Shown: positions 16,108 through 40,457 of the stretch, piece by piece
Layout: each line of letters starts with the position of its first letter
Position numbering within the stretch: position 1 is the stretch's first letter
From: Caldilineales bacterium
GTDB lineage: Bacteria > Chloroflexota > Anaerolineae > Caldilineales > Caldilineaceae
NCBI GenBank assembly: GCA_012271135.1
Contig: JAAXGZ010000003.1
Location: forward strand, 452-64,451
Direction: 5' to 3'
Length of the DNA stretch: 64,000 nucleotides
The notes under the pieces: model-generated
The model's database searches: none
What the model saw: only the letters and a program-made list of their open reading frames with translations
What the model was told of the DNA's origin: nothing
Program-made: the position numbers and the translations under genes

Positions 16108-16108
16108 G

Positions 16109-16477
16109 GTGAACGGTCCGTCCGGAGCCGTGCGGGGCTGGAGCGCCGCGGCCTGGCTGGTGCCGGTAGTCGGTCCCGTGCTGGCGCTGTTGGCGGGTGG
16201 TCATCCCCTGTCCCGTCACCATGCCCTACAGTCCTTGGTGGTCAGCACCACTGCCGTGGCCGTGTTTCTGGCCTGGGCCGCGCTGGGGTGGATTTTGACA
16301 TGGATCCCAATCGTGGGGGCGACGATGGGCGCCATGCTGTTTGCAGGGGTACCCATGGTGCTGGCCGCCACGCTGGTGGCCCACATATCCGGGCTGGTGT
16401 ATGCCTGGCAAGGCCGCTTCACGCTGGTGCCGTTGTATGGCGGCCTGCTGAGAGTTGTGCTGGGTTCCGCGGACTGA
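16109..16477 (+). CDS. small integral membrane protein (about 122 aa, DUF4870-like topology)
   Basis: In-frame GTG at 16109, one nucleotide after the OppF-like stop (TGA 16105-16107; ...gactgaGgtgaac...). It encodes VNGPSGAVRGWSAAAWLVPVVGPVLALLAGGHPLSRHHALQSLVVSTTAVAVFLAWAALGWILTWIPIVGATMGAMLFAGVPMVLAATLVAHISGLVYAWQGRFTLVPLYG, with three to four TM helices. The family assignment is tentative. Confidence 0.55.
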   Translation: MNGPSGAVRGWSAAAWLVPVVGPVLALLAGGHPLSRHHALQSLVVSTTAVAVFLAWAALGWILTWIPIVGATMGAMLFAGVPMVLAATLVAHISGLVYAWQGRFTLVPLYGGLLRVVLGSAD

Positions 16478-16506
16478 CGGACAGGGCCGGATTCCGCGCT
16501 TCGTTG

Positions 16507-16722
16507 CAGCTTGGTTGAGTTGGGTTGGGAACCCAATTGCCGATCAAGCTTCCGTGTCGAGGTGTGGCCCAGTCAACCGTCAGCAGGCAAGGCGGGACGC
16601 CGGGAACCGGTTCGCCCACGGGCGAACAGTCAGGTTTATCACAAGCACCACAGCATGTTGCCTGTAGTTCCTGTTTGATTCGGCTTTGATGCGGCGTTCA
16701 TCCATCCGAAGGTGCCACGGTG
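16507..16722 (-). repeat. conserved structured non-coding tail downstream of Uma2 gene 1 (copy A)
   Basis: Aligns with 18409..18591, with an insertion of about 27 nt in copy A. A 34-nt block ttcggctttgatgcggcgttcatccatccgaagg is identical in both copies. The reading frames of the two copies disagree on both strands, so the element is not coding. Hairpins: gttcgcc-cac-gggcgaac and ttgggtt-ggg-aacccaa. Confidence 0.6.
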
Positions 16723-17901
16723 CTATCCGGAGCCGTGGTCGTGGTCCGGGTTTCCCAGCAGGGACTGCCACTCGTTCGGTGCCTGCTGCACCTTCCGGAT
16801 GCGATCCATCACATTCGGCGGGGGGCCGTCCCGATGCCAAGCAGCCTCGATCCGTTCCAGGTTCGCCGGTTCCAGCTCCGTTCCCAGGCATGCGCGCAAC
16901 AGACCAATGGCCAACTCCATCCGTTCACGCTCCATTTCTGTCCATTCAAATTCGGCGTCGGTCTCGCGGTCGCGCCAGCGGCCCGTGTCCGGGTCGTACC
17001 ACTGGAAGCGGGGGGGTGGCCTGTATTCCTCGGGCAGGCTCTGCATGGCCTCCGTGTCCTCCCGCGCATTCGGCAGCATGCGGATGTGCGTGTCGAACAC
17101 CTCGCTCCAGTACGCGTCCGCGCCTTCGACCGACATCACCGGGTCGGGCTCGACCTGGCGGTATGTCCCACCCTCCAGCCGGAACACCAACAGCTCCCGG
17201 GGCGAACCCGCCCGGCGCTTGCCGCCGAGGTCGTAGGCCAGGTATTCGGGGATCCCCGCCGCCGCATACAGGCGCTTCTTGTAGATGAGGTCGCGGTTCG
17301 CGGAGCCCTTGGATAACACCTCTAGCACCAGCTGCGGCACAGGCGCGCCCAGATCCAGACGCAGGATGCGTTCGGGCATGAACCGTTCCCGTTCCGGTGC
17401 CGACATCGCCTTCCGCACCAGCAGGTCCGGGCGCACGGCTTTCTTGACCGGGTGCCGCTCTGTGCTGGTGCGATTGACCTGCGCGACGGTCTCCGGTCGG
17501 AAACGGACGGTCCCCTCGTAGTCGGCCTCCAAACCTACCCGGGCAAGGGGATCGGTCGCCGATTCCTCCATGCGCTCCTGGATCAGCCGGGCGCGTCGTT
17601 CGGCGGGGCTCATCACACCGTTCTTGTCGTATTCATCGAGATGGACACCCTCGGCCCCGTAGTCGGGGTCGGTGGTCCAGTCGTGGTCGTACTCGTGGGC
17701 GACGTCGTAGATGAAGTCGGGGTCGAAATGGCCCAGCTGCTCCAGTTCGGCGCGCCATTCCGCCCAGTGTTCCCGCCGCCAGGCGCTCCGTGCCGCGCGC
17801 GCCGCGCGTGTCATGGTGGGGTCGGCATCGGGGTGCGGCTCCGCCACGCGCCCGTTGGGCACCGCCGGCATCCGCGTCCGTTCCCGCACGGCCGTGTCCA
17901 T
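16723..17901 (-). CDS. Uma2-family (DUF820) PD-(D/E)xK endonuclease with N- and C-terminal extensions
   Basis: 392 aa. The Uma2 core is PERILRLDLGAPVPQLVLEVLSKGSANRDLIYKKRLYAAAGIPEYLAYDL. The N-extension carries HFDPDFIYDVAHEYDHDWTTDPDYG. The C-terminal module is LAIGLLRACLGTELEPANLERIEAAWHRDGPPPNVMDRIRKVQQAPNEWQSLL. Confidence 0.8.
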   Translation of the reverse strand: MDTAVRERTRMPAVPNGRVAEPHPDADPTMTRAARAARSAWRREHWAEWRAELEQLGHFDPDFIYDVAHEYDHDWTTDPDYGAEGVHLDEYDKNGVMSPAERRARLIQERMEESATDPLARVGLEADYEGTVRFRPETVAQVNRTSTERHPVKKAVRPDLLVRKAMSAPERERFMPERILRLDLGAPVPQLVLEVLSKGSANRDLIYKKRLYAAAGIPEYLAYDLGGKRRAGSPRELLVFRLEGGTYRQVEPDPVMSVEGADAYWSEVFDTHIRMLPNAREDTEAMQSLPEEYRPPPRFQWYDPDTGRWRDRETDAEFEWTEMERERMELAIGLLRACLGTELEPANLERIEAAWHRDGPPPNVMDRIRKVQQAPNEWQSLLGNPDHDHGSG

Positions 17902-18067
17902 GCTTCGCCTCCCGTTTCGGAAATTGGCCCCATTCTACTCCGATGCCCCGTTGGCCAACGGCAGGGATCCTTATTTTGTGAACCCAGTCTGAGCCTGGAA
18001 TGGGCAGGGGCCTTCGTCGCAGGCTTCGTCCCGGCATGTGTCCCTGCCGCTTGACCTATCCGTGCCT

Positions 18068-18368
18068 GCGGCTGTCCGGCGTGTCAGGGAACTGCAGCGA
18101 ACGCCAGTGGATCTTGCTCCGGAACATGTCCGCCGCGGTGTGGCCTGGTCCCACCCGGTGCAGTGGGCCTCGATTTGGCCAAGCAACGTGCCGGGTAGTT
18201 TCGTCTTCAGGACTGCGTACACCATGGAGACGCGCTCCTCAATATGACTCTTGCTACGCCTCTGGCCTCGTCTTTCTGCACCTGGTATTTTGTCTTGACA
18301 CCCACATCCAGGTCGCGCCAGAGGCTTCGGTCAGGATCGCATCACCCGGTGTTGCTGTATGGCAGTTT
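18068..18368 (-). repeat. dispersed repeat / decayed gene remnant, long copy
   Basis: Its ends match 21370..21518 (gcggctgtYcggc.gKtcagggaactgcagcgaaYgcc ... gttgMtRtatggcag). The minus-strand frames give ...GVKTKYQVQKDEARGV... and ...HWRSLQFPDTPDSRRHG*, broken by frameshifts. Confidence 0.45.
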
Positions 18369-18408
18369 GCCGAGAGCCGTGCCGGGTTCCCGCTGCGCGG
18401 TACTGTTA

Positions 18409-18591
18409 CAGTTTGGTTGGATTCGGAACCCAATTGCCGAGCCAACCGTTAGCGGGCAAGGAAGGATGCCGGGAACCAGTTCGCCTACGGACGAACAGCC
18501 AGATTCATCAAGGGCACCACCGTGTTTCGACTGTCGTGCCCGTTGGGTTCGGCTTTGATGCGGCGTTCATCCATCCGAAGGCACTACGGTG
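18409..18591 (-). repeat. conserved structured non-coding tail downstream of Uma2 gene 2 (copy B)
   Basis: Homologous to 16507..16722; see that entry. The hairpin gttcg-cctacgga-cgaac occupies the equivalent position. Confidence 0.6.
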
Positions 18592-19710
18592 CTATCCGGA
18601 GCCGGTGTCGTGGTTCGGGTCTCCCAACAGGGACCGCCATTCGTTCGATATCCGCTGTACCTTCCGGATACGGTCCATCACATTTGGCGGGGGACCGTCC
18701 CGATGCCAAACGGCCTCGATCCGTTCCAAGTTTGCCGGTTCCAGATCCGTTCCCAGACATGTGCGCAACAGACCGATGGCCAACTCCGTCCGTTCACGCT
18801 CCAACTCCGTCCGTTCACGTTCCTGGTCGGTCTCTCGATCGCGCCAGAGACCCTGGTCCGGATCCCACCATTGCAGCCGATGCAGATCTACCGGTTTGTC
18901 CGGCATGCCGACATCCACGTCGCGGGCCACAGCCGGCAGCATGCGGATGTCGGCCGCCAGCACTGCGCTGTGGTACACGGGCCATTCCCCGTCCCCTGCC
19001 TGCCGCGGGATCCGAACATAGTTCCCCGTGTCGCCCAGCCGCCAGCCCCAGAACGAAACGCCGTCCGCGGACGCCGGCGGCGCATGGCCCTCCGGGTCGT
19101 ACAGCCAGTACTCCGCAATGCCCATGGCGGCATAGGTGTCCAACTTGGGCCCCAGATCCGCTTGCCACGTGGACTCGGAGAGGACCTCCAGCACCAGCAG
19201 CGGGGGCGGGTCCACTCCCAGCCGGCAGGCGCGGGGCAGCGGTTCGCCTGGCGGCAACACCTTCGGCAGCACGGCCACGTCCGGAACGAGATGTCCCTTG
19301 TCCCTGAACTCGTGGTCCGGTGCCAGGGCCTGCCTGACCGCGTCCGACAGGTGCACCGTGAATTCGCGCGGTGCACATCGGCCCCGCAGGTCCTCTACGG
19401 TGTGCTTGAAGGATGTAAGGGAGTATTTGTGTGGTTCGGTGGTCAAGTAGGTAACCCCATCCACACCGTAGTCCGGATCCGTCGTGTATTCGTCGTCGTA
19501 CTCATGGGTCGGGTCGTAGGGGTAGGCCGGGTCGTAGTGGGTCAGGGCTCTGATCGTCGTCCACCAGGCCTCACTGCCGGGCATCGGCGCGGCAGGCAGC
19601 GGTGGCAGTGCGACGGTCGCAGTCCCGTTGAAGGGCCGGTCTGCCGTTCCGTTCACGGCGTCGCCTTCAGTTCCGATCCGTTCCTGTTCCCGTGCCTTCG
19701 GCGTGGCCAT
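18592..19710 (-). CDS. Uma2-family (DUF820) endonuclease paralog with N- and C-terminal extensions
   Basis: Internal ATG at 19710 of ORF 18592..20097. The core is LGVDPPPLLVLEVLSESTWQADLGPKLDTYAAMGIAEYWLYDP. The N-extension is HYDPAYPYDPTHEYDDEYTTDPDYG. The C-terminal module is LAIGLLRTCLGTDLEPANLERIEAVWHRDGPPPNVMDRIRKVQRISNEWRSLL. The start is not certain. Confidence 0.75.
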   Translation of the reverse strand: MATPKAREQERIGTEGDAVNGTADRPFNGTATVALPPLPAAPMPGSEAWWTTIRALTHYDPAYPYDPTHEYDDEYTTDPDYGVDGVTYLTTEPHKYSLTSFKHTVEDLRGRCAPREFTVHLSDAVRQALAPDHEFRDKGHLVPDVAVLPKVLPPGEPLPRACRLGVDPPPLLVLEVLSESTWQADLGPKLDTYAAMGIAEYWLYDPEGHAPPASADGVSFWGWRLGDTGNYVRIPRQAGDGEWPVYHSAVLAADIRMLPAVARDVDVGMPDKPVDLHRLQWWDPDQGLWRDRETDQERERTELERERTELAIGLLRTCLGTDLEPANLERIEAVWHRDGPPPNVMDRIRKVQRISNEWRSLLGDPNHDTGSG

Positions 19711-19939
19711 GGCCGCGTTCCTGCTCACTCCAAGTGTTGGTCCGCCATTGTAGTACGCTCCGAATTGGCGGCCTGCCACGCCTCCCATCGCCTGTTGATA
19801 TGGCAGCTTAAAGCCACGGTGTTTCGAGCCCGTTGCGGGTTCCGTTAAAGGGTTCCGATAAAATTGGATGGCAGGTGCCGGTCGATTTCTGATCGCCCGC
19901 CGCACCAAGCCATCGTCCAACCTAGACAGGAGCAACCGT

Positions 19940-21268
19940 ATGAGCAAGTCGTCAGCGCGCCTAAACCGCAGGCAGTTCCTCACCTTGGCCGGCGCCGGAG
20001 CCATCGCCACGGGCCTGGCGGCCTGTGTGCCTGCCGCGCCCGTCGGCGATGCCGGGGACGGCGCCATGGAGGACGTCCAGTTGCAGTTCGTGACCAATCA
20101 CGGCGATGTCGAGATTCCGTTCTTCCAGCAGGTAGTGGATAACTTCACCGAAGCCAATCCCCACGTCCAGATCGACCTGCTGAATGTTTCCACGGAGTAC
20201 TACACCAAGATCAACACGCAGGGCGTCGGGGGTGATCTGCCGGACATCTTCTACACCCGGACGTTCGACGTGGTTCCCTACGCCTCCAAGGAGTGGACGG
20301 TCAACCTGCAGCCGCTGGTGGAGCGGGACAACATCGACACCGACGATTTCTGGGAAGCCGAAGTGGAACAGATCACGTACCAGGGCGATCTGTATGCCCT
20401 TCCCTACGACTTCTCAAACCTGGGCGTTGCCTACAACATCAACATCTTCAACGAGGCGGGCCTAGAGGTTCCGGACGGCAGTTGGGACTGGGACGGCCTG
20501 CGCACCGTGGCCGAATCGCTTACGACTCGGGAAGACGGCCGCACCACCCGCTGGGGGTGGGCCGCCCACCCCTGGCCCTGGGTCTGGGTTGGCATCATTG
20601 CGGCCAACGGCGGTGGCATCCTCAACGAGGATCAGACCGAGTGCATCATGGCCTCGCCCGAAAACATCGAGACCCTCAGCTTCTTCAAAAGCCTCTGGTC
20701 CGACAGCATCATCCCGGAACAAGGTGCCATGCCACAGGGGGTGGAGGGGTTCTCCGCCGGCATTCTGGCCATGACCACGATGGGTTCCTGGGCCACACAG
20801 TGGCGCCGCGCGGCCATCGGCGACAGTTTCGACTGGGATGTGACCGCCTACCCGTTCGGTTCCGAGGGGCGCCGGGCCGTTTCGGCCGCAGGTGGCGCCT
20901 GGGGCATTGCGACCAACTCCGACCATGTGGAGGAGACCTGGCAGTTCAATGTGCACCTAACCAGCACGGAGTCGACCAACATCCTGATCTCCGAACCGGT
21001 CCGCTCCATCCCGGGACGCAAGTCCTCGGTGCCGGCCTGGACAGCGGCGGCTGCCCGCGAGGATCTGCCGCCGCGGAACGTCGAAGTCTTCGCCGAAATG
21101 ATGGAGGATGCCTACTCGGCACCGTTCCCGGCCTATTGGAAGGACCTGGAGACGATCTGGTTCAATCGGGTGGCACCGCTGATTTCGGGCGGAGATCCTT
21201 CGGTGGATGTCGCCGAGTCCCTGGGCAAGTTCCAGGACGAGGTCAACGAGCTCATAGCCATTTCCTAG
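19940..21268 (+). CDS. sugar ABC substrate-binding lipoprotein (family 1), paralog 1
   Basis: ATG at 19940 preceded by aggag. Tat/lipobox MSKSSARLNRRQFLTLAGAGAIATGLAAC. 442 aa, collinear with the next gene. Confidence 0.85.
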   Translation: MSKSSARLNRRQFLTLAGAGAIATGLAACVPAAPVGDAGDGAMEDVQLQFVTNHGDVEIPFFQQVVDNFTEANPHVQIDLLNVSTEYYTKINTQGVGGDLPDIFYTRTFDVVPYASKEWTVNLQPLVERDNIDTDDFWEAEVEQITYQGDLYALPYDFSNLGVAYNINIFNEAGLEVPDGSWDWDGLRTVAESLTTREDGRTTRWGWAAHPWPWVWVGIIAANGGGILNEDQTECIMASPENIETLSFFKSLWSDSIIPEQGAMPQGVEGFSAGILAMTTMGSWATQWRRAAIGDSFDWDVTAYPFGSEGRRAVSAAGGAWGIATNSDHVEETWQFNVHLTSTESTNILISEPVRSIPGRKSSVPAWTAAAAREDLPPRNVEVFAEMMEDAYSAPFPAYWKDLETIWFNRVAPLISGGDPSVDVAESLGKFQDEVNELIAIS

Positions 21269-21300
21269 TGCGGTTGACCCTGTATGGGTTGGTCGCCGAG

Positions 21301-21330
21301 AGGCGGGGCCGCCACGCCGCGACCCCGCCT
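21301..21330 (+). terminator. hairpin after SBP paralog 1
   Basis: aggcgggg-(14 nt)-ccccgcct. The same structure recurs after paralog 2. There is no T-run. Confidence 0.4.
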
Positions 21331-21369
21331 TCCCTGATTCAACTCCGACGGTTGGGTTTATGTGTTCCC

Positions 21370-21518
21370 GCGGCTGTTCGGCTGGTCAGGGAACTGCAGC
21401 GAATGCCGGTCGGCTTGGCTCAACCACACCTTCGTCCTTCATCCATAGTGCAGTCTTGTCCTGCTCGACGCCATGTGTTGGCTTGCCACGCCTCCCATCG
21501 CCTGTTGATATGGCAGCC
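21370..21518 (-). repeat. dispersed repeat / decayed gene remnant, short copy
   Basis: Homologous to the two ends of 18068..18368 with the middle deleted. The minus strand gives ...EQDKTALWMKDEGVV... and ...SLQFPDQPNSRGNT*. The right-hand part also recurs at 19771..19808. Confidence 0.45.
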
Positions 21519-21637
21519 AAAGCCACCGTGATTCGAATTCGTTTCAGTATCGGGTAAAATTTTTCTTCGCAGGTACCGGCAGACTCCCGATCGGCCACCG
21601 TACCGAGCCATCGTTCAACCTAGACTAGAGTGAAAGC

Positions 21638-22966
21638 ATGAGCAAGATGTCAATGCGCCTGAACCGCAGGCAGTTCCTCACCCTGGCCGGTGCCGGAGCC
21701 ATCGCCACGGGTCTGGCGGCCTGTGTGCCCGCCGCTCCTGCTGGCGATGCCGGGGAAGCTGCCATGGAGGACATCCAGATTCAGTTCGTGACCAATCACG
21801 GTGACGCTGAACAACCCTTTTTCCAGCAGGTGGTGGACAACTTCACTGATGCCAACCCGCACATCCAGGTTGACTTGCTGAATGTCTCCGCGGAGTACTA
21901 CACCAAGATCAACACGCAAGGCGTGGGAGGCGATCTTCCGGACATTTTCTATACCCGAACTTGGGACGTGGTTCCCTACGCCTCCAAGGAGTGGACCGTC
22001 AACCTGCAACCCCTTGCTGAGCGCGACAACATTGATTTCGACGACTTTTGGGAAGCTGAATTGGAGCAAATCGTCTACCAGGGCGATCTGTATGCCCTTC
22101 CCTACGACTTCTCAAACCTGGGCGTTGCCTACAACATCGACATCTTCAACGAGGAGGGCATAGAGGTTCCGGACGGCAGTTGGGACTGGGACGGTCTGCG
22201 CAGCCTGGCCGAATCGCTCACGATTCGGGAAGACGGCCGCACCACCCGTTGGGGGTGGTCCGCCCACCCCTGGCCTTGGGTCTGGATTGGCATCATTGCG
22301 GCTAACGGTGGAGCTCTTCTCAACGAGGATCAGACCGAGTGCGTGATGAACTCACCCGAAAACATCGAGACCCTCAGCTTCTTCAAAAGCCTCTGGTCCG
22401 ACGGTATCATCCCGGAGCAAGGTGCCATGCCACAGGGGGTGGAGGGGTTCTCCGCCGGCCTTCTCGCCATGACCACAATGGGTTCCTGGGCGACGCAGTG
22501 GCGCCGCGGGGTGATTGGCGACAAATTCGACTGGGATGTGACTGCCTATCCATTTGGGTCCGAAGGACGACGGGCTGTCTCTGCCGGTGGTGGAGCATGG
22601 GGCATTGCCACCAACTCCAATCACATTGAAGAGACCTGGCAGTTCAATGTTCACCTGACCAGCACGGAGTCGACCAACATCCTGATCTCCGAACCGGTCC
22701 GCTCCATCCCGGGACGCAAGTCCTCAGTACCGGCTTGGACAGAGGCGGCTGCCCGCGAAGATCTGCCACCGCGGAACGTCGAAGTCTTCGCCGAAATGAT
22801 GGAGGATGCCTACTCGGCGCCGTTCCCAGCCTACTTTAAGGATCTGGAGACGATCTGGTTCAATCGGGTGGCACCGCTGATTGCGGGCGGAGATCCTTCG
22901 GTGGATGTCGCCGAGTCCCTGGCCAAGTTCCAGGACGAGGTCAACGAGCTTATTGCTAGTTACTAG
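21638..22966 (+). CDS. sugar ABC substrate-binding lipoprotein (family 1), paralog 2
   Basis: MSKMSMRLNRRQFLTLAGAGAIATGLAAC. 442 aa, with no indels relative to paralog 1. By eye, roughly nine residues in ten are identical. Confidence 0.85.
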   Translation: MSKMSMRLNRRQFLTLAGAGAIATGLAACVPAAPAGDAGEAAMEDIQIQFVTNHGDAEQPFFQQVVDNFTDANPHIQVDLLNVSAEYYTKINTQGVGGDLPDIFYTRTWDVVPYASKEWTVNLQPLAERDNIDFDDFWEAELEQIVYQGDLYALPYDFSNLGVAYNIDIFNEEGIEVPDGSWDWDGLRSLAESLTIREDGRTTRWGWSAHPWPWVWIGIIAANGGALLNEDQTECVMNSPENIETLSFFKSLWSDGIIPEQGAMPQGVEGFSAGLLAMTTMGSWATQWRRGVIGDKFDWDVTAYPFGSEGRRAVSAGGGAWGIATNSNHIEETWQFNVHLTSTESTNILISEPVRSIPGRKSSVPAWTEAAAREDLPPRNVEVFAEMMEDAYSAPFPAYFKDLETIWFNRVAPLIAGGDPSVDVAESLAKFQDEVNELIASY

Positions 22967-22998
22967 GGCGACTGACCCTGAATGGGTTGGTTGCCGAG

Positions 22999-23027
22999 AG
23001 GCGGGGTCGCCATGCGCGGCCCCGCCT
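22999..23027 (+). terminator. hairpin after SBP paralog 2
   Basis: aggcgggg-(13 nt)-ccccgcct, duplicated together with the gene. Confidence 0.4.
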
Positions 23028-23055
23028 TCCCTGATTCAACAACCCCGCCTGACCG

Positions 23056-26397: not shown

Positions 26398-27678
26398 ATG
26401 GAAAAAGCTAGAGCCTTCATTTTCGGTGTGCTTGCGACCATGTTGGTACTGGTCGTGTTGGCATTCTTCGTCGTCAACGACCGATTCGGTTTGATGCTGA
26501 AACTGGTGGGTCCTAAGTATGAAGTTCCGCAAGAACACTTAGATAAGCTTCAAGAAATGTTTCCCGCTCCTTCGACTTTGGATCGTTCTTTAGATGCAAA
26601 TGAACAACTGTGCGTATTCCAAGTCAACCCCGGCATCGTAGGTGATGTCGATATTTTCGACAAAATCCCTGATAGTTGGTGGGCCAAAACCCTGACAGAT
26701 CGAGAGATCAACGAGCCACAACTTGAGGAAGACTACTTCCTGTTGCTAGATGGGACACCAGGGTACGGCGATGACGAGTTCTGGTTCCATGTGCGCCATT
26801 TCAAGGCTTCAGCACCCACGATCATGCTGGAGGAGGGCTGGGTTCGAGCGACAAACCTTCAGGCCCAGACACCTGAATGCAGTCTGGGTGGACTCGTGTC
26901 CGAAGATGTGCCTGTCCCCACGGCCACCCGCGGCCCAACGGCTACAGCCACTGTGGTCGTGTCTGTGGTGACACCGGTACAAGGGGAGTCACCCTGCACC
27001 TATCGGGCCCAGCCCGGCATTGTGGGCGACATCGACATATTTGATGCGATTCCCCAAGACTGGCTGGACAAGACGCTGCACGACCGCGAGATTGACGAAC
27101 CCCAACCGGAAACCGATTTCTTCCTGTTGCTCGATGAGACTCCGGGCTACGGTGACGATGAGTACTGGCTCCATGTGCGTCATTTCAAGGCTTCAGCACC
27201 CACGATCATGCTGGAGGAGGGCTGGATCCGAGTGACAAACCTTCAGGCGCTGACACCTGAATGCAGTCTGGGTGGACTCGTGTCCGAAGATGTGCCTGTC
27301 CCCACGGCCATCCGCGGCCCGACGGCTACGGCCGCAGTGGTCGTTCCCGTGGTGACACCGGTACAAGGGGAGCTACCTTGCATCTATCGGGCCCAGCCCG
27401 GCATTGTGGGCGACATTGACATTTTCGATGAGATTCCCCAAGGCTGGTTGGACAAGACGCTGCACGACCGCGAGATTGACGAACCCCAACCGGAAACCGA
27501 TTTCTTCCTGTTGCTTGATGAGACTCCGGGCTACGGTGACGACGAGTACTGGCTCCATGTTCATCACTTCAAGGCATTGGCTCCGGACATCATGTTGGAG
27601 AAGGGCTGGGTGCGGGTTACGAACCTCCAAGCCTTGACAACTGAGTGTACGCTTGAAGCACTCATGCAACATCGTTAA
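26398..27678 (+). CDS. membrane-anchored hypothetical protein made of three 128-aa tandem repeats
   Basis: N-terminal TM helix AFIFGVLATMLVLVVLAFFVV. Repeats begin at Cys72, Cys200 and Cys328, and the third lacks the linker. Each unit reads C..(R/Q)..PGIVGD(V/I)DIFD.IP..W..KTL.DREI.EPQ.E.D(Y/F)FLLLD.TPGYGDDE(F/Y)W(F/L)HV.HFKA.AP.IMLE.GW.R.TNLQA.T.EC. GC content is clearly lower than in flanking DNA. Confidence 0.7.
   Translation: MEKARAFIFGVLATMLVLVVLAFFVVNDRFGLMLKLVGPKYEVPQEHLDKLQEMFPAPSTLDRSLDANEQLCVFQVNPGIVGDVDIFDKIPDSWWAKTLTDREINEPQLEEDYFLLLDGTPGYGDDEFWFHVRHFKASAPTIMLEEGWVRATNLQAQTPECSLGGLVSEDVPVPTATRGPTATATVVVSVVTPVQGESPCTYRAQPGIVGDIDIFDAIPQDWLDKTLHDREIDEPQPETDFFLLLDETPGYGDDEYWLHVRHFKASAPTIMLEEGWIRVTNLQALTPECSLGGLVSEDVPVPTAIRGPTATAAVVVPVVTPVQGELPCIYRAQPGIVGDIDIFDEIPQGWLDKTLHDREIDEPQPETDFFLLLDETPGYGDDEYWLHVHHFKALAPDIMLEKGWVRVTNLQALTTECTLEALMQHR
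26611..27675 (+). repeat. 384-bp tandem repeat, 2.8 copies (26611, 26995, 27379)
   Basis: Exact period of 384 nt. Copies 2 and 3 are near-identical at the nucleotide level; copy 1 is more diverged. Confidence 0.85.
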
Positions 27679-27849: not shown

Positions 27850-29010
27850 TCACGGCTCCTCTTCCGTCAGAATTCGCAAGTATTCTTGGTACGCGTACAC
27901 CCGACCGCGTCGCTTGCCCGTGATCTCGCGCAATACGCCAAGGTCTTGCAGCAACCCTATCGCCTTGCTGGATGTTGGGGCTGTTAGACCGAGTAGCCCT
28001 GAAGCACTGGGGACAGTGACGACCGGATTGGACGGTAGGCAGTCGAGCAATCGGATCGCCGCGACCGTGGGGCTTTTGTGTTCGAGGAGGCGGCTGCGGT
28101 TACGTTCAATCAGCGCATGGAGAGCCTGAGCGACACGCACTCCGTCGGCTGCGGCTGTCTGTACACAGCCGAGAAAAAACCGGGTCCAACCTTCCCAGTC
28201 TCCAGTTTGGCGTACGGCATCCAAATGCGCGTAGTACTCTTGCTGGTTCCGTTTCAAGGCCAAACTGAGGTAGAGCAGAGGCTGGTCGAGTAGACCCCAA
28301 TGCTCCAACAGCAAGGCAATCAACAGCCGGCCGATGCGTCCGTTACCATCTAGGAAAGGATGGATTGTCTCGAACTGCACATGGGCCAGACCAGTTCTCA
28401 CGAGAGGTGGGAGATCGTGTTCCGCATGGAGCCATCTCTCCAGTGCACCGAGCGCGCTGGCCACCTCATCCGGTGGTGGGGGTACAAAATGGGCGTTGCC
28501 GGGGCGACTGCCACCGATCCAGTTCTGCGAACGACGGAGTTCCCCCGGTAGTTTGTCTTCGCCACGAACGCCGGCCATGAGAATTCGGTGCGCCTCACAC
28601 AACAAGCGGATGCTGATCGGCAGTCCTTTGGGATCTGCAATCCGAGCCCGAGTGTGCGCTAGGGCATCCATATAGTTGAGGACCTCGCGTACATCATCCG
28701 GTCGATCACTGTGCTGGGTAGCCTCAAATGCTACAACGTCCTGAAGCGTTGCCTGCGTGCCTTCGATTTGCGATGTGACCACTGCCTCCTTGCGAACGAA
28801 TCCGTACAGGAACAAGCCTGGGTTCGGTACCACCGAGCCCGCGACTGCAAGTCGTGCCAGTTCCGCTAATGCAGCAGTATGTAGATTGGAGGTCAGGTCA
28901 TCCAACTCCAGCGGAGGCTCGACCGGGGGGAGTGGGAAGGGCACAAACGCGCGTACCTCTTCTCCACCTTTGGTACTGGTGATGCGGTATCGACCGGTCT
29001 GACGAGTCAC
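27850..29010 (-). CDS. Fic-family protein (AMPylase-type) with N-terminal inhibitory helix and C-terminal wHTH
   Basis: Fic motif HPFLDGNGRIGRLL. Inhibitory motif TSQIEG ([S/T]xxxE[G/N]). C-terminal wHTH is LGLTAPTSSKAIGLLQDLGVLREITGKRRGRVY. The GTG at 29010 has gaggag 9 nt upstream, and the longer ORF reaching 29205 lacks homology-like sequence. Confidence 0.85.
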   Translation of the reverse strand: MTRQTGRYRITSTKGGEEVRAFVPFPLPPVEPPLELDDLTSNLHTAALAELARLAVAGSVVPNPGLFLYGFVRKEAVVTSQIEGTQATLQDVVAFEATQHSDRPDDVREVLNYMDALAHTRARIADPKGLPISIRLLCEAHRILMAGVRGEDKLPGELRRSQNWIGGSRPGNAHFVPPPPDEVASALGALERWLHAEHDLPPLVRTGLAHVQFETIHPFLDGNGRIGRLLIALLLEHWGLLDQPLLYLSLALKRNQQEYYAHLDAVRQTGDWEGWTRFFLGCVQTAAADGVRVAQALHALIERNRSRLLEHKSPTVAAIRLLDCLPSNPVVTVPSASGLLGLTAPTSSKAIGLLQDLGVLREITGKRRGRVYAYQEYLRILTEEEP

Positions 29011-29040
29011 AGGGGAAAGCTCCTCAATCTTTCTCAGGGG

Positions 29041-29097
29041 GTTAAGAAACGATCGTTGCTTAATGTACACCACAAAGAAACGATCGTTTCTTTGTGG
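29041..29097. promoter_or_regulatory. two adjacent palindromic operator-like sites upstream of fic
   Basis: There is a perfect 28-bp palindrome ccacaaagaaacgatcgtttctttgtgg (29070..29097), and an imperfect copy ttaagaaacgatcgttgcttaa (29042..29063). Both share the core AGAAACGATCGTT. They lie 30-90 nt upstream of the GTG start. Confidence 0.5.
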
Positions 29098-29394
29098 CAG
29101 ATGCGCGGAGAGTTGCTCAATCCAGACAGCAAGGCGGTTGCTTGCTATCCAACAGTGCCTTGCAGGTGGCGAGGTTACAGGGGTTCTGAACGTTGGGCTT
29201 GGCAACTGGGTGGCGGTGGATCGAGAGTGCTACAACCACGCCAGTCAGGAATTGGACCTGTGGCCTACCACGTGGCAGAGGTGAATCTTCTTCCGTTGAG
29301 GTGCCCTGCCAAGACTCGTTATCAGCATGGCCCGGAGTTGGGATGCAGGCAAAGCCCGAGCCAATCATGGGGTTTGAGGGCCTCGAGTGGTTGG

Positions 29395-39266: not shown

Positions 39267-40457
39267 GTGGTTGATATGCGAATACGACCGCAGGCCGCAG
39301 CGATCCCGACTGCTGTGGCCGATCCGGATTGGGGACAGGGGCGGCCGGACCCCCGCGCCTTGGCGGTGGCCCAGGAATTGCAGGAGCGGTTGCCGGATAC
39401 CCAAGTGATGCTCTTCGGCAGCCGGGCGGGGGGCCGATGGCGGCCGCGGTCTGATCTCGACTTGGCTGTGATTGGCATGGAAGAAGACCTGGAATCGGAA
39501 TCTTCCTTGCGGAACACGGCCAAGGCCATGGCTGGAGACCTATATGACAGACCGCCAGATATCCAGATTTTCCCTATTCCACGTTCCGAATTTGAGAAGT
39601 TTCGCACTTCCCTACCCCACATCGCAGGGCAGGTACAGAGCCGAGGACTTACACCGGAAGGAGAGCACCTTCCCCTCATGACGCAAGACAACCCGTGGCC
39701 CGGAGTCCGGACATTGCTGCAATCCACCCGGCGCCACTTGGAGAGAGCCTTGGGCAACTTGGAACAATATCCCGACGAAGCAGTGTTCCATGCTCATTCA
39801 GCATTGGAAACAGTTCTCAAGGCGGCTCTGGGCGCGGCGAAGGTAGATTTCGAATTTACCCACAATCTGCAGGATTTGGTAAGGCAAGCGAGAGAAGAGG
39901 CGCCGGCCACCCTCTTGGCGTCAATGGAGGGCTTCCCGTCTGCCGCCCAACTGAATGAGTGGACGAAGTTTCGACTACAGGTCCCCTACAGCGGAGAAAC
40001 CGTGCCTTGGCCAGCAGATTCGGCTGAAGAGATCGTTGGCACCGTACAACGACTGAGCGGGATTCTGGCAGGGCACGCGCTGGAGTCGCTGGGCAAGTCC
40101 CCACACGATGTTGGTTACGCGGAGTGGCTGGGGAATGGCCCCTTGGCCGGTTGGGAATCGCTGCCTCTGGACTATTTTTCGCAGGCGGAGGTGGAAGAAC
40201 GGATCATCCAAGAAATCCGGGCAGCGGAACGGACCGACTTGGCTGTCGCGACACTGCGCGTGTTCCTGGGGAGTGACTTGACCCCGGCCGTCCTGGATCG
40301 GATCGAGGCCGCATGGCGCGCAGAAGGGCCGCCGCCGGACTATCTGCAAAATCTCAAGGACGCGCAACAGGCACCGGACAATTGGCGTTCCCTGCTGTTG
40401 TCGGATCACCATGAGCCGGATACCGACCGCGCGTCGAACGATAGATACTGCGTCTGA
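39267..40457 (+). CDS. fused minimal nucleotidyltransferase (MNT) - HEPN protein carrying the Uma2-type C-terminal module
   Basis: NTase motif MLFGSRAGGRWRPRSDLDLAV. HEPN-like helices HAHSALETVLKAALGAAKVDFEFTHNLQDLVRQA. The C-terminus LAVATLRVFLGSDLTPAVLDRIEAAWRAEGPPPDYLQNLKDAQQAPDNWRSLL aligns to the tails of both Uma2 proteins. Confidence 0.75.
   Translation: MVDMRIRPQAAAIPTAVADPDWGQGRPDPRALAVAQELQERLPDTQVMLFGSRAGGRWRPRSDLDLAVIGMEEDLESESSLRNTAKAMAGDLYDRPPDIQIFPIPRSEFEKFRTSLPHIAGQVQSRGLTPEGEHLPLMTQDNPWPGVRTLLQSTRRHLERALGNLEQYPDEAVFHAHSALETVLKAALGAAKVDFEFTHNLQDLVRQAREEAPATLLASMEGFPSAAQLNEWTKFRLQVPYSGETVPWPADSAEEIVGTVQRLSGILAGHALESLGKSPHDVGYAEWLGNGPLAGWESLPLDYFSQAEVEERIIQEIRAAERTDLAVATLRVFLGSDLTPAVLDRIEAAWRAEGPPPDYLQNLKDAQQAPDNWRSLLLSDHHEPDTDRASNDRYCV

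Follow-up and report, generated by a model that had tools for sequence, protein, structure and literature searches.

The 64,000-nucleotide (nt) stretch analysed here (the window; Caldilineales bacterium, assembly GCA_012271135.1, contig JAAXGZ010000003.1, positions 452 to 64,451) carries on its minus strand two genes, A and B, that encode unusually long relatives of the Uma2 nucleases. We show that they are members of a genus-restricted and heavily expanded subfamily of the Uma2 (PF05685) PD-(D/E)XK proteins, in which a repeat-bearing helix and the C-terminal tail form an exchangeable cassette that has the sequence coding for a short hairpin as its boundary. Gene B is itself, as judged from comparison of the sequences, a chimera: a single old duplicative insertion of ~500 nt at the hairpin-coding motif, and not a replacement tract, copied into it the A tail, the stop codon and ~250-300 nt of the A 3' flank. 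To this explanation as a whole, that is to say the family, the exchangeable cassette, the history of the chimera and a nuclease function inferred for its members, we give a probability of about 0.72.

A preliminary description of the window had reported two paralogous Uma2 proteins of 392 and about 372 amino acids (aa). Both open reading frames (ORFs) were found and are intact:

16723..17901, minus: gene A, a long Uma2 nuclease gene with its native tail (392 aa; ORF and translation, Pfam Uma2 match, AlphaFold2 model, orthologues)
18592..19710, minus: gene B, a chimeric long Uma2 nuclease gene with a B-type body and an A-type tail (372 aa)

The reading frame of B is open upstream to 20097, and the ATG at 19710 was taken as the start because the same start (MATPKAREQ...) is called at two syntenic loci, L011 and L012, that lie in other assemblies.

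History of the gene B tail

At the protein level A and B are 43% identical over 351 aa (BLASTP), with 80% identity in the last 92 aa and ~37% in a partial alignment of the central parts. As DNA, positions 16567-17004 match 18436-18873 with 83% identity over 438 nt (blastn), and beyond this tract the genes can be aligned only over the 75 nt that encode a motif of the N-terminal extension. The preliminary description was right about the diverged centres, most of the remainder of the genes being unalignable as DNA, but it overstated the likeness of the 3' ends, which it took to be almost identical: the coding tails share 84.4% of their nucleotides, and windows of 60 nt peak at 90-92%. The conversion tract that had been expected between 16723..17901 and 18592..19710 could indeed be mapped, but it runs past the stop codons of both genes into the 3' flank, with ~156 nt of strong similarity (81%) and weaker patches that reach 16415/18338. 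The elements on which the history of B rests are the following:

16415..16722, minus: 3' flank of A, the source of the copied flank (blastn matches to 18338-18591); it overlaps the 3' end of a convergent small ORF ending at 16477
18338..18591, minus: non-coding copy of the A 3' flank beside B (81% over 156 nt, with weaker patches farther out)
18832..18873, minus: left junction of the insertion, coding QWWDPDQGLWRDRE (B residues 280-293), where the B-type and A-type alignments overlap
18068..18344, minus: displaced native B tail, a pseudogene (tblastn with the native B tail of L012; blastn to L012 7111-7272 and L011 9211-9361)
21364..21473, minus: second fragment, the end of a native B tail (tblastn; blastn at 80-81% to the B tail ends of L011 and L012)

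Locus L011 lies on a contig of 5.0 Mb and holds B' (380 aa) and A' (406 aa), and L012 holds B'' (380 aa), X'' (367 aa) and A'' (413 aa); the A orthologues at these syntenic loci show 88% identity. B' and B'' have tails of a different, native type that ends in ...W.SLQFPDQPDSQGS, and X'' combines a B-type body with an A-type tail. In the identity profiles, the body of the window's B is ~90% identical to B'' and X'', and likewise to the B of L011. Over the last ~135 nt of its coding sequence, B is 97-99% identical to X'', compared with 82-91% for the tail of A from the same genome, and the native B tails cannot be aligned with it (30-45%). The residues RISNEW... and ...DTGSG, moreover, are common to B and X'' and absent in A.

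Both junctions of the insertion were mapped. The match to the B body stops at 18832 and that to the A tail begins at 18873, and near this left junction A and B share an identical stretch of 17 nt. The native B tail is still present downstream of the B stop codon and of the copied A flank, where it is complete but spread over three reading frames (18338 to 18264, 18279 to 18127 and 18157 to 18068); the hairpin motif recurs at its start (..DPDRSLWRD..), and its end reads ..HWRSLQFPDTPDSR. Read along the minus strand, the order is hence B body, hairpin, A tail with its stop codon and 3' flank, second hairpin, and decayed B tail. The same chimera with the same remnant is carried by L012. Since the tail of B is closest to that of X'' and the remnant occurs also in L012, the insertion is older than the divergence of these two genomes. 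It pushed the native B tail downstream, where it decayed. The most likely route of the insertion is in our opinion copying primed by homology, or one crossover, at the hairpin motif.

Since the event A and B have come to differ at 21% of third codon positions and at 12-14% of first and second ones, and their flanks at 19%. Because the flank has diverged about as much as the third positions, co-transfer suffices to account for its similarity and a functional explanation is not needed. A structured RNA or a terminator in the copied 3' flank was considered and rejected (fold z-score of -1.3 against shuffled sequences, no Rfam match, no terminator-like site). Apart from the copy beside B, the A 3' flank has no further copy in the genome. 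The small ORF convergent with gene A (16108-16477, plus strand) encodes a hydrophobic product with no Pfam match, and its last ~60 nt were copied along with the flank, a degenerate remnant lying near 18338-18390.

The window lacks a separate native B gene, and the first 90 nt of its B are 96% identical to B'' and 80% to X''. The single B gene of the window probably merges the B and X copies that are kept apart in L012. The second native tail fragment (21364-21473) sits between two copies of a gene for a sugar-binding protein, and it would be simplest to suppose that B was once duplicated together with this neighbour and that the extra B copy was then deleted almost entirely. The neighbour, which encodes the substrate-binding protein of a sugar ATP-binding cassette (ABC) transporter, is tandemly duplicated in the window (19770-21343 and 21480-23040; 86.6% over ~1570 nt) and is found as a single copy in L011 and L012.

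Architecture and family of the long Uma2 proteins

Each protein is made of four parts, namely an N-extension of ~85 aa, the Uma2 core, a hairpin followed by an E/R-rich repeat helix, and a helical tail of ~58 aa; the N-terminal motif, the ERERMEL/ERERTEL helix and the C-terminal module of ~60 aa are present as previously described. In gene A they are laid out as follows:

17641..17901, minus: N-extension (residues 1-87), with a disordered start, an R-rich two-helix element at 32-54 and the motif H(F/Y)DP..Y.YD..HEY..DWTTDPDYG
17071..17640, minus: Uma2 PD-(D/E)XK core (residues ~88-277), with D159, E194, D204 and K208
16969..17016, minus: beta-hairpin RFQWYD..G.WRD (residues 296-311), encoded by the sequence that serves as module boundary and recombination junction
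16921..16968, minus: E/R-rich linker helix (residues 312-327), with one ERERxEL heptad versus 4-5 in orthologues
16747..16920, minus: C-terminal helical tail module (residues 328-385; alignment A2)

The structure of the full-length protein, proposed earlier as a check on this architecture, could be modelled with confidence for A and comprises a Uma2 core plus extra elements. In the AlphaFold2 model, for which an alignment of 66 relatives (A1) was the input, the whole chain folds as one confident unit (predicted local distance difference test, pLDDT, 84.8; predicted template modelling score, pTM, 0.74). Residues 1-25 are disordered, 32-54 form two arginine-rich helices and 55-87 the motif-bearing loop; the hairpin strands are at 298-303 and 308-310, a long helix spans 312-339, and three short helices make up a small bundle at 345-382. 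A dedicated model of the tail reached a pLDDT of 84.7.

Pfam recognises Uma2 alone in A and B, over ~70-100 residues each, the profile (172 positions) being matched at 65-151 in A (51.0 bits) and at 65-133 in B (52.5 bits), with a gathering cut-off of 27. Foldseek searches with the model of A returned 6okh, 9y1l, 1wdj and 3ot2 (E from 9e-7 to 6e-4, probability 1.0, 165-184 aligned columns), and a PDB profile search with A returned 6okh and 9y1l, so that the structure matches are limited to solved Uma2 proteins. The core is accordingly modelled with a Uma2-type PD-(D/E)XK fold. E194, D204 and K208 are invariant and D159 is nearly invariant among the 66 sequences of A1; 6okh and 9y1l have the same four residues at the aligned positions, and a catalytic role is predicted for them. 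Since the solved Uma2 proteins have 178-190 aa, A and B are about double the usual length. They do not conform to the single-domain build of ~180-200 aa, as they carry ~85 aa before the core and ~115 aa after it that fall outside the family model.

The motif of the N-extension is acidic and aromatic (HYDP...TTDPDYG), and its W, H, Y, E, Y, TTDP and Y are invariant in alignments A1 and A4. A search restricted to this region found 60 proteins, all but one with PF05685 (59); the extension being almost wholly confined to PF05685 proteins, it is an elaboration specific to this Uma2 lineage. In the hairpin, Q300, W309 and D311 are invariant in A1 and W301 is nearly so, and the family consensus reads RFQW(W/Y)D..G.WRD or, in short, QWWD..G.WRD. 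It had been considered that both extensions might turn out to be domains already annotated, and this was not the case: the isolated N piece (residues 1-90) and C piece (301-392) have no Pfam match, the full-length proteins of A and B no NCBIfam match, and the N-extension and the tail no PDB match. The conclusion that the architecture is not assignable to any described system still holds.

A and B are not an oddity of one locus but members of a family with more than 200 relatives in databases. The protein database yielded 205 relatives of ~335-500 aa; those that bear a name are all from metagenome-assembled genomes (MAGs) of Caldilineaceae and are called 'Uma2 family endonuclease' or 'hypothetical protein'. 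The scan of species-representative genomes gave 80 loci from ~9 MAGs. The source genome (4.05 Mb in 159 contigs) has 32 Uma2 loci, of which ~22 are three-part; ~13 of the latter are intact, the rest being frameshifted, truncated or fragmentary. About a third of the long copies of the genome are broken, which points to a rapid turnover by birth and death. Broken long copies were seen on G000 contigs C125, C77, C123, C17, C51, C130, C94 and C13 (1689-2330).

In profile searches across the order, 16 of 19 further genomes from this GTDB genus had the tail, and all 131 genomes that represented 25 other genera were negative for it; for the N-extension the figures were 18 of 19 and, in 25 sister genera, 0 of 131. 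Several genomes of the genus have at least 35-40 matches each, and 300 genomes sampled from elsewhere in the phylum yielded two marginal matches. When the 58-aa tail profile was run against 1.84 billion representative proteins, 141 were matched, at a C-terminal position in the full-length hits. Some species of the genus have many N-extensions and few or no tails of this type, which indicates that the extension and core combine with more than one kind of tail. Two paralogues with Uma2 as their sole Pfam match, L127:494-1498 (G000, contig C25; 334 aa) and L128:374-1252 (G000, contig C5; 292 aa), have a diverged N-motif (HYDP.Y.Y...EY....TTDP.Y), and the former has a different tail preceded by EGKAEG-type repeats. 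The names of several MAGs of the genus (SB06xx, IRC1) suggest sponge metagenomes as their origin.

Tail exchange, repeat number and surroundings

That the helix and tail are exchanged at the hairpin emerges from a comparison of body and tail identity over 2,415 pairs. The bodies of L024 and L060 are 92-96% identical to those of L030, L031 and L035, while the tails are only 29-31% identical; the proteins are colinear to ...WRDRE(T/S)D and unrelated straight after it. L024 and L031, whose bodies are 95% identical, are located in one genome. The converse was found for L023 and L083, with bodies 34% and tails 72% identical.

The helix varies in its number of repeats, and in B the repeat is visible as DNA:

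18780..18823, minus: 21-nt tandem repeat in B, 2.1 copies, coding two ERERTEL heptads (Tandem Repeats Finder)

The 21-nt ERERTEL unit is present once in the window's A and in X'', in 2.1 copies in the window's B, and in 4.1 and 4.7 copies in A' and A'', respectively; the helices of other family members carry EGRA, EGRE or ERDQAAQ repeats. Two database relatives, P0127 (457 aa) and P0163 (477 aa), have two tandem tail modules after the hairpin and possibly represent intermediates whose displaced tail has stayed in frame. In other genomes, further matches to the tail module, which may be orphan tails or belong to adjacent genes, lie a short way upstream of long Uma2 genes on either strand: L018:1505-1675(-), L027:871-1041(-), L043:2349-2480(-) and L049:2532-2648(+).

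The same tail is also found in the window on an unrelated enzyme:

39267..40457, plus: fusion of a nucleotidyltransferase (NTase) and a HEPN domain (Pfam NTP_transf_2 and HEPN) with the same tail module at 40230-40406

This tail is recognised by the tail hidden Markov model (HMM) with E 1.9e-23 and is 50% identical to that of A, which is within the range among Uma2 tails, and the tail-bearing fusion occurs on two other contigs as well. The protein recalls the MNT-HEPN (type VII) toxin-antitoxin systems, although it scores 29 bits against MntA, where the NCBIfam cut-off is 60. The common tail is the only point at which MNT-HEPN bears on A and B, and it links the module to toxin-antitoxin-like scaffolds.

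The neighbours that recur across 69 loci are syntenic ABC permeases or further long Uma2 genes. Farther along the window, a plus-strand ORF of 426 aa (26398-27678) in the stretch of lowest GC content (0.55) encodes an N-terminal hydrophobic segment and three tandem repeats of ~128 aa (384-nt period, 84% nucleotide identity between adjacent copies). It is followed on the minus strand by an ORF of 451 aa (27850-29205) with an HPFxDGNGRxGR motif of Fic/Doc type, recognised by eye; the beginning of L011 carries a gene with Fic_N/Fic Pfam matches, outside the stretch that aligns to the window.

Function, alternatives and significance

With the canonical Uma2/DUF820/TT1808 proteins (PF05685; 1wdj, 3ot2, 6okh, 9y1l) A and B share the fold of the central ~190 aa, the conserved pattern PD...E(V/I)xS...D...K...Y...EY, HMM scores above the gathering cut-off and the presence of multiple copies in a genome. 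They differ in their double length and in having the ~85-aa N-extension, the QWWD hairpin, the repeat helix and the ~58-aa tail; these added parts lie outside the Pfam model and every solved structure, and the extension and tail are restricted to one genus of the order sampled. The literature on the family goes no further than 'predicted endonuclease' (PMC3424549). The core of A and B also matches four models of the single-gene, Uma2-type system PDC-S03 of PADLOC (best E 8e-12 and 5e-12), which have 184-207 positions and cover the core only; PDC-S03 is a candidate proposed from genomic association and not a validated system.

A second comparison is with the Rpn nucleases, whose PD-(D/E)XK nuclease part continues into a helix of four-residue repeats, variable between strains, and then into a small C-domain of three helices (Zhong et al. 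2023, PMC10400941). Often annotated as DUF4351, this C-domain (RpnS) is in addition translated by itself from an internal start, and it inhibits the full-length enzyme, which is toxic and defends against phage; small tail-like genes lie downstream of some rpn genes (PMC10400941). The long Uma2 proteins resemble the Rpn (YhgA-like; PDB 7TH0) proteins in the succession of nuclease, long repeat-variable helix and small helical C-domain, and they too show a variable number of short repeats in the helix before the C-domain. In both, moreover, the tails are hypervariable and can be exchanged, remnants or copies resembling the tail lie downstream of certain genes, and a separate partner gene is lacking. 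They differ in the core (Uma2 here, Transposase_31/Rpn there), in the repeats (mostly 7 aa versus 4) and in the internal start codon, which is not conserved in the long Uma2 family.

Homology of the tail to DUF4351/RpnS was considered and rejected, since searches of the genome and of individual members with Pfam, PDB profile searches, Foldseek and hhalign were all negative. The PF14261 (DUF4351) HMM had no match in the whole genome at E<=1, in any of 36 tail sequences or in the variant tail with EGKAEG repeats from contig C25. A PDB profile search with the tail alignment returned nothing relevant, and the best Foldseek match of the tail model in PDB had an E of 2.9, 7TH0 not being among the 50 matches listed, a weak result in view of the difficulty that small helical domains pose for the method. 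When A2 was compared by hhalign with 15 genuine DUF4351 segments taken from genomes of Chloroflexota, the probability was 3.2% over 12 aligned columns; a word-indexed search restricted to the tail region returned only close relatives and was uninformative. The resemblance to Rpn is one of design and not of demonstrated ancestry.

By analogy with these systems, each gene probably encodes a self-contained DNA nuclease of toxic or defence type. The tail would act as a handle for oligomerisation or partner binding, with spacing or pairing specificity depending on the repeat helix as in the Rpn nucleases, so that tail swaps and changes in repeat number would diversify specificity. The hints that point in this direction are the match of the core to PDC-S03, the tail on the NTase-HEPN fusion, the lack of a conserved partner gene in the 69 loci, the birth-and-death turnover and the Rpn precedent. 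Several points weigh against the explanation we prefer: the neighbours are ABC-transporter operons and not a defence island, nuclease activity is predicted from conserved residues only, the tail has no detectable homology to DUF4351/RpnS and leaves the functional analogy one of design, and the mechanism of the insertion is not recoverable from its end product.

In polymorphic toxin loci (Rhs, CdiA) a motif bounds a constant body and a variable C-terminal module, and a new module is inserted there, the old one staying behind downstream as an orphan with part of the motif still attached. The long Uma2 genes are similar in having a demarcation motif at the boundary of body and cassette, which is the junction both in the window's B and in the L024/L031 group, and in the displaced orphan downstream, which opens with a second copy of the hairpin motif. 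They differ in that the variable module is small and helical and not a toxin, the catalytic domain being in the constant body; Pfam detects no secretion or delivery domains in A and B, and no conserved neighbouring gene that could provide immunity was found in the 69 loci. One may tentatively go further and regard these genes as one-gene toxin or defence modules in which the tail and repeat helix would be a pairing code that gates a DNA nuclease, the N-extension a sensing or regulatory part, and cassette insertion at the hairpin motif a dedicated mechanism of diversification, independent of Rpn/RpnS and the polymorphic toxins but parallel to them. The partners in such a code would be a tail-only product, other tail-bearing enzymes such as the NTase-HEPN fusion, or a phage factor. 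In this complete form we think the proposal rather unlikely.

The resemblance to RpnL/RpnS raises the alternative of a gene-within-gene toxin-antitoxin, in which a tail-only protein made from an internal start would neutralise the full-length nuclease. In keeping with it, 27 of 70 members have a Met at the tail start, two in-frame ATG codons are present there in A, and metagenome gene callers predict tail-only proteins of 55-80 aa that begin at this Met. However, the Met is found in 39% of members only, the site being otherwise occupied by another hydrophobic residue, and it is absent in B and in the NTase-HEPN copy. The short database proteins, for their part, may be fragments from contig edges or frameshifts, and the failure to detect homology to RpnS applies here too; we consider this alternative quite improbable.

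We are still more reluctant to regard the genes as selfish and mobile, either as homing-type nucleases or as cargo of an unrecognised transposable element, with their copies and rearrangements reflecting mobility. The high number of matches in some genomes and the many pseudogenes would fit such behaviour, Uma2 genes have been reported in mobile-element contexts in some proteobacteria (Steczkiewicz et al. 2012), and genes of IS605 type are found a few kb away in L011. But the paralogues do not share flanks, that of A matching only the copy beside B genome-wide; the 69 loci show no transposase or other conserved neighbour; A and B occupy the same syntenic position in three genomes; and the change in copy number at their locus is tandem and recombinational.

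The preliminary description had attributed the likeness of the A and B tails to gene conversion or selection. If conversion were ongoing (concerted evolution), or purifying selection strong, one would understand why two adjacent genes in the same orientation have tails 80% identical in aa, when either is only 30-47% identical to the other paralogues of the genome. Under such a process tails should be most similar within a genome, and the three genomes examined show the opposite, the B tail with its RISNEW... and ...DTGSG residues being nearer to X'' than to A. The similarity, besides, enters the non-coding flank at a divergence close to that of third positions, and the displaced native tail marks an insertion and not a replacement tract. 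Recombination between paralogues is thus retained from the earlier proposal, but ongoing conversion is not, and selection is not needed; we hold either as the maintaining force to be very unlikely. An artefact, be it fusion of a Uma2 gene with small neighbours or chimeric MAG contigs, is scarcely credible despite the fragmentation of the source MAG into 159 contigs and the proneness of repeated genes to mis-assembly, because three independent assemblies carry the same architecture and L012 the same chimera with its remnant, three-part proteins occur in more than 200 database clusters that include single-contig genomes of 4-5 Mb, and AlphaFold2 folds the whole chain as one confident unit.

Uma2/DUF820 is among the largest PD-(D/E)XK families without a known function and, as PDC-S03, a candidate for single-gene phage defence. 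What is new here is a lineage-specific, modular elaboration of these nucleases with a well-documented replacement of a tail cassette. The locus of A and B records the stepwise replacement of a C-terminal domain in a bacterial gene, first by an insertion at a short conserved motif and then by the decay of the module so displaced. That one Caldilineaceae genus has come to have dozens of copies would fit a fast-evolving conflict system. With its defined module boundary, its natural tail swaps on bodies that are 92-96% identical and its orthologues that differ only in heptad number, the long Uma2 subfamily offers a testable handle on the family, and these natural variants provide the comparisons with which to ask whether the tail controls oligomerisation, toxicity or specificity, as has been shown for the Rpn nucleases.

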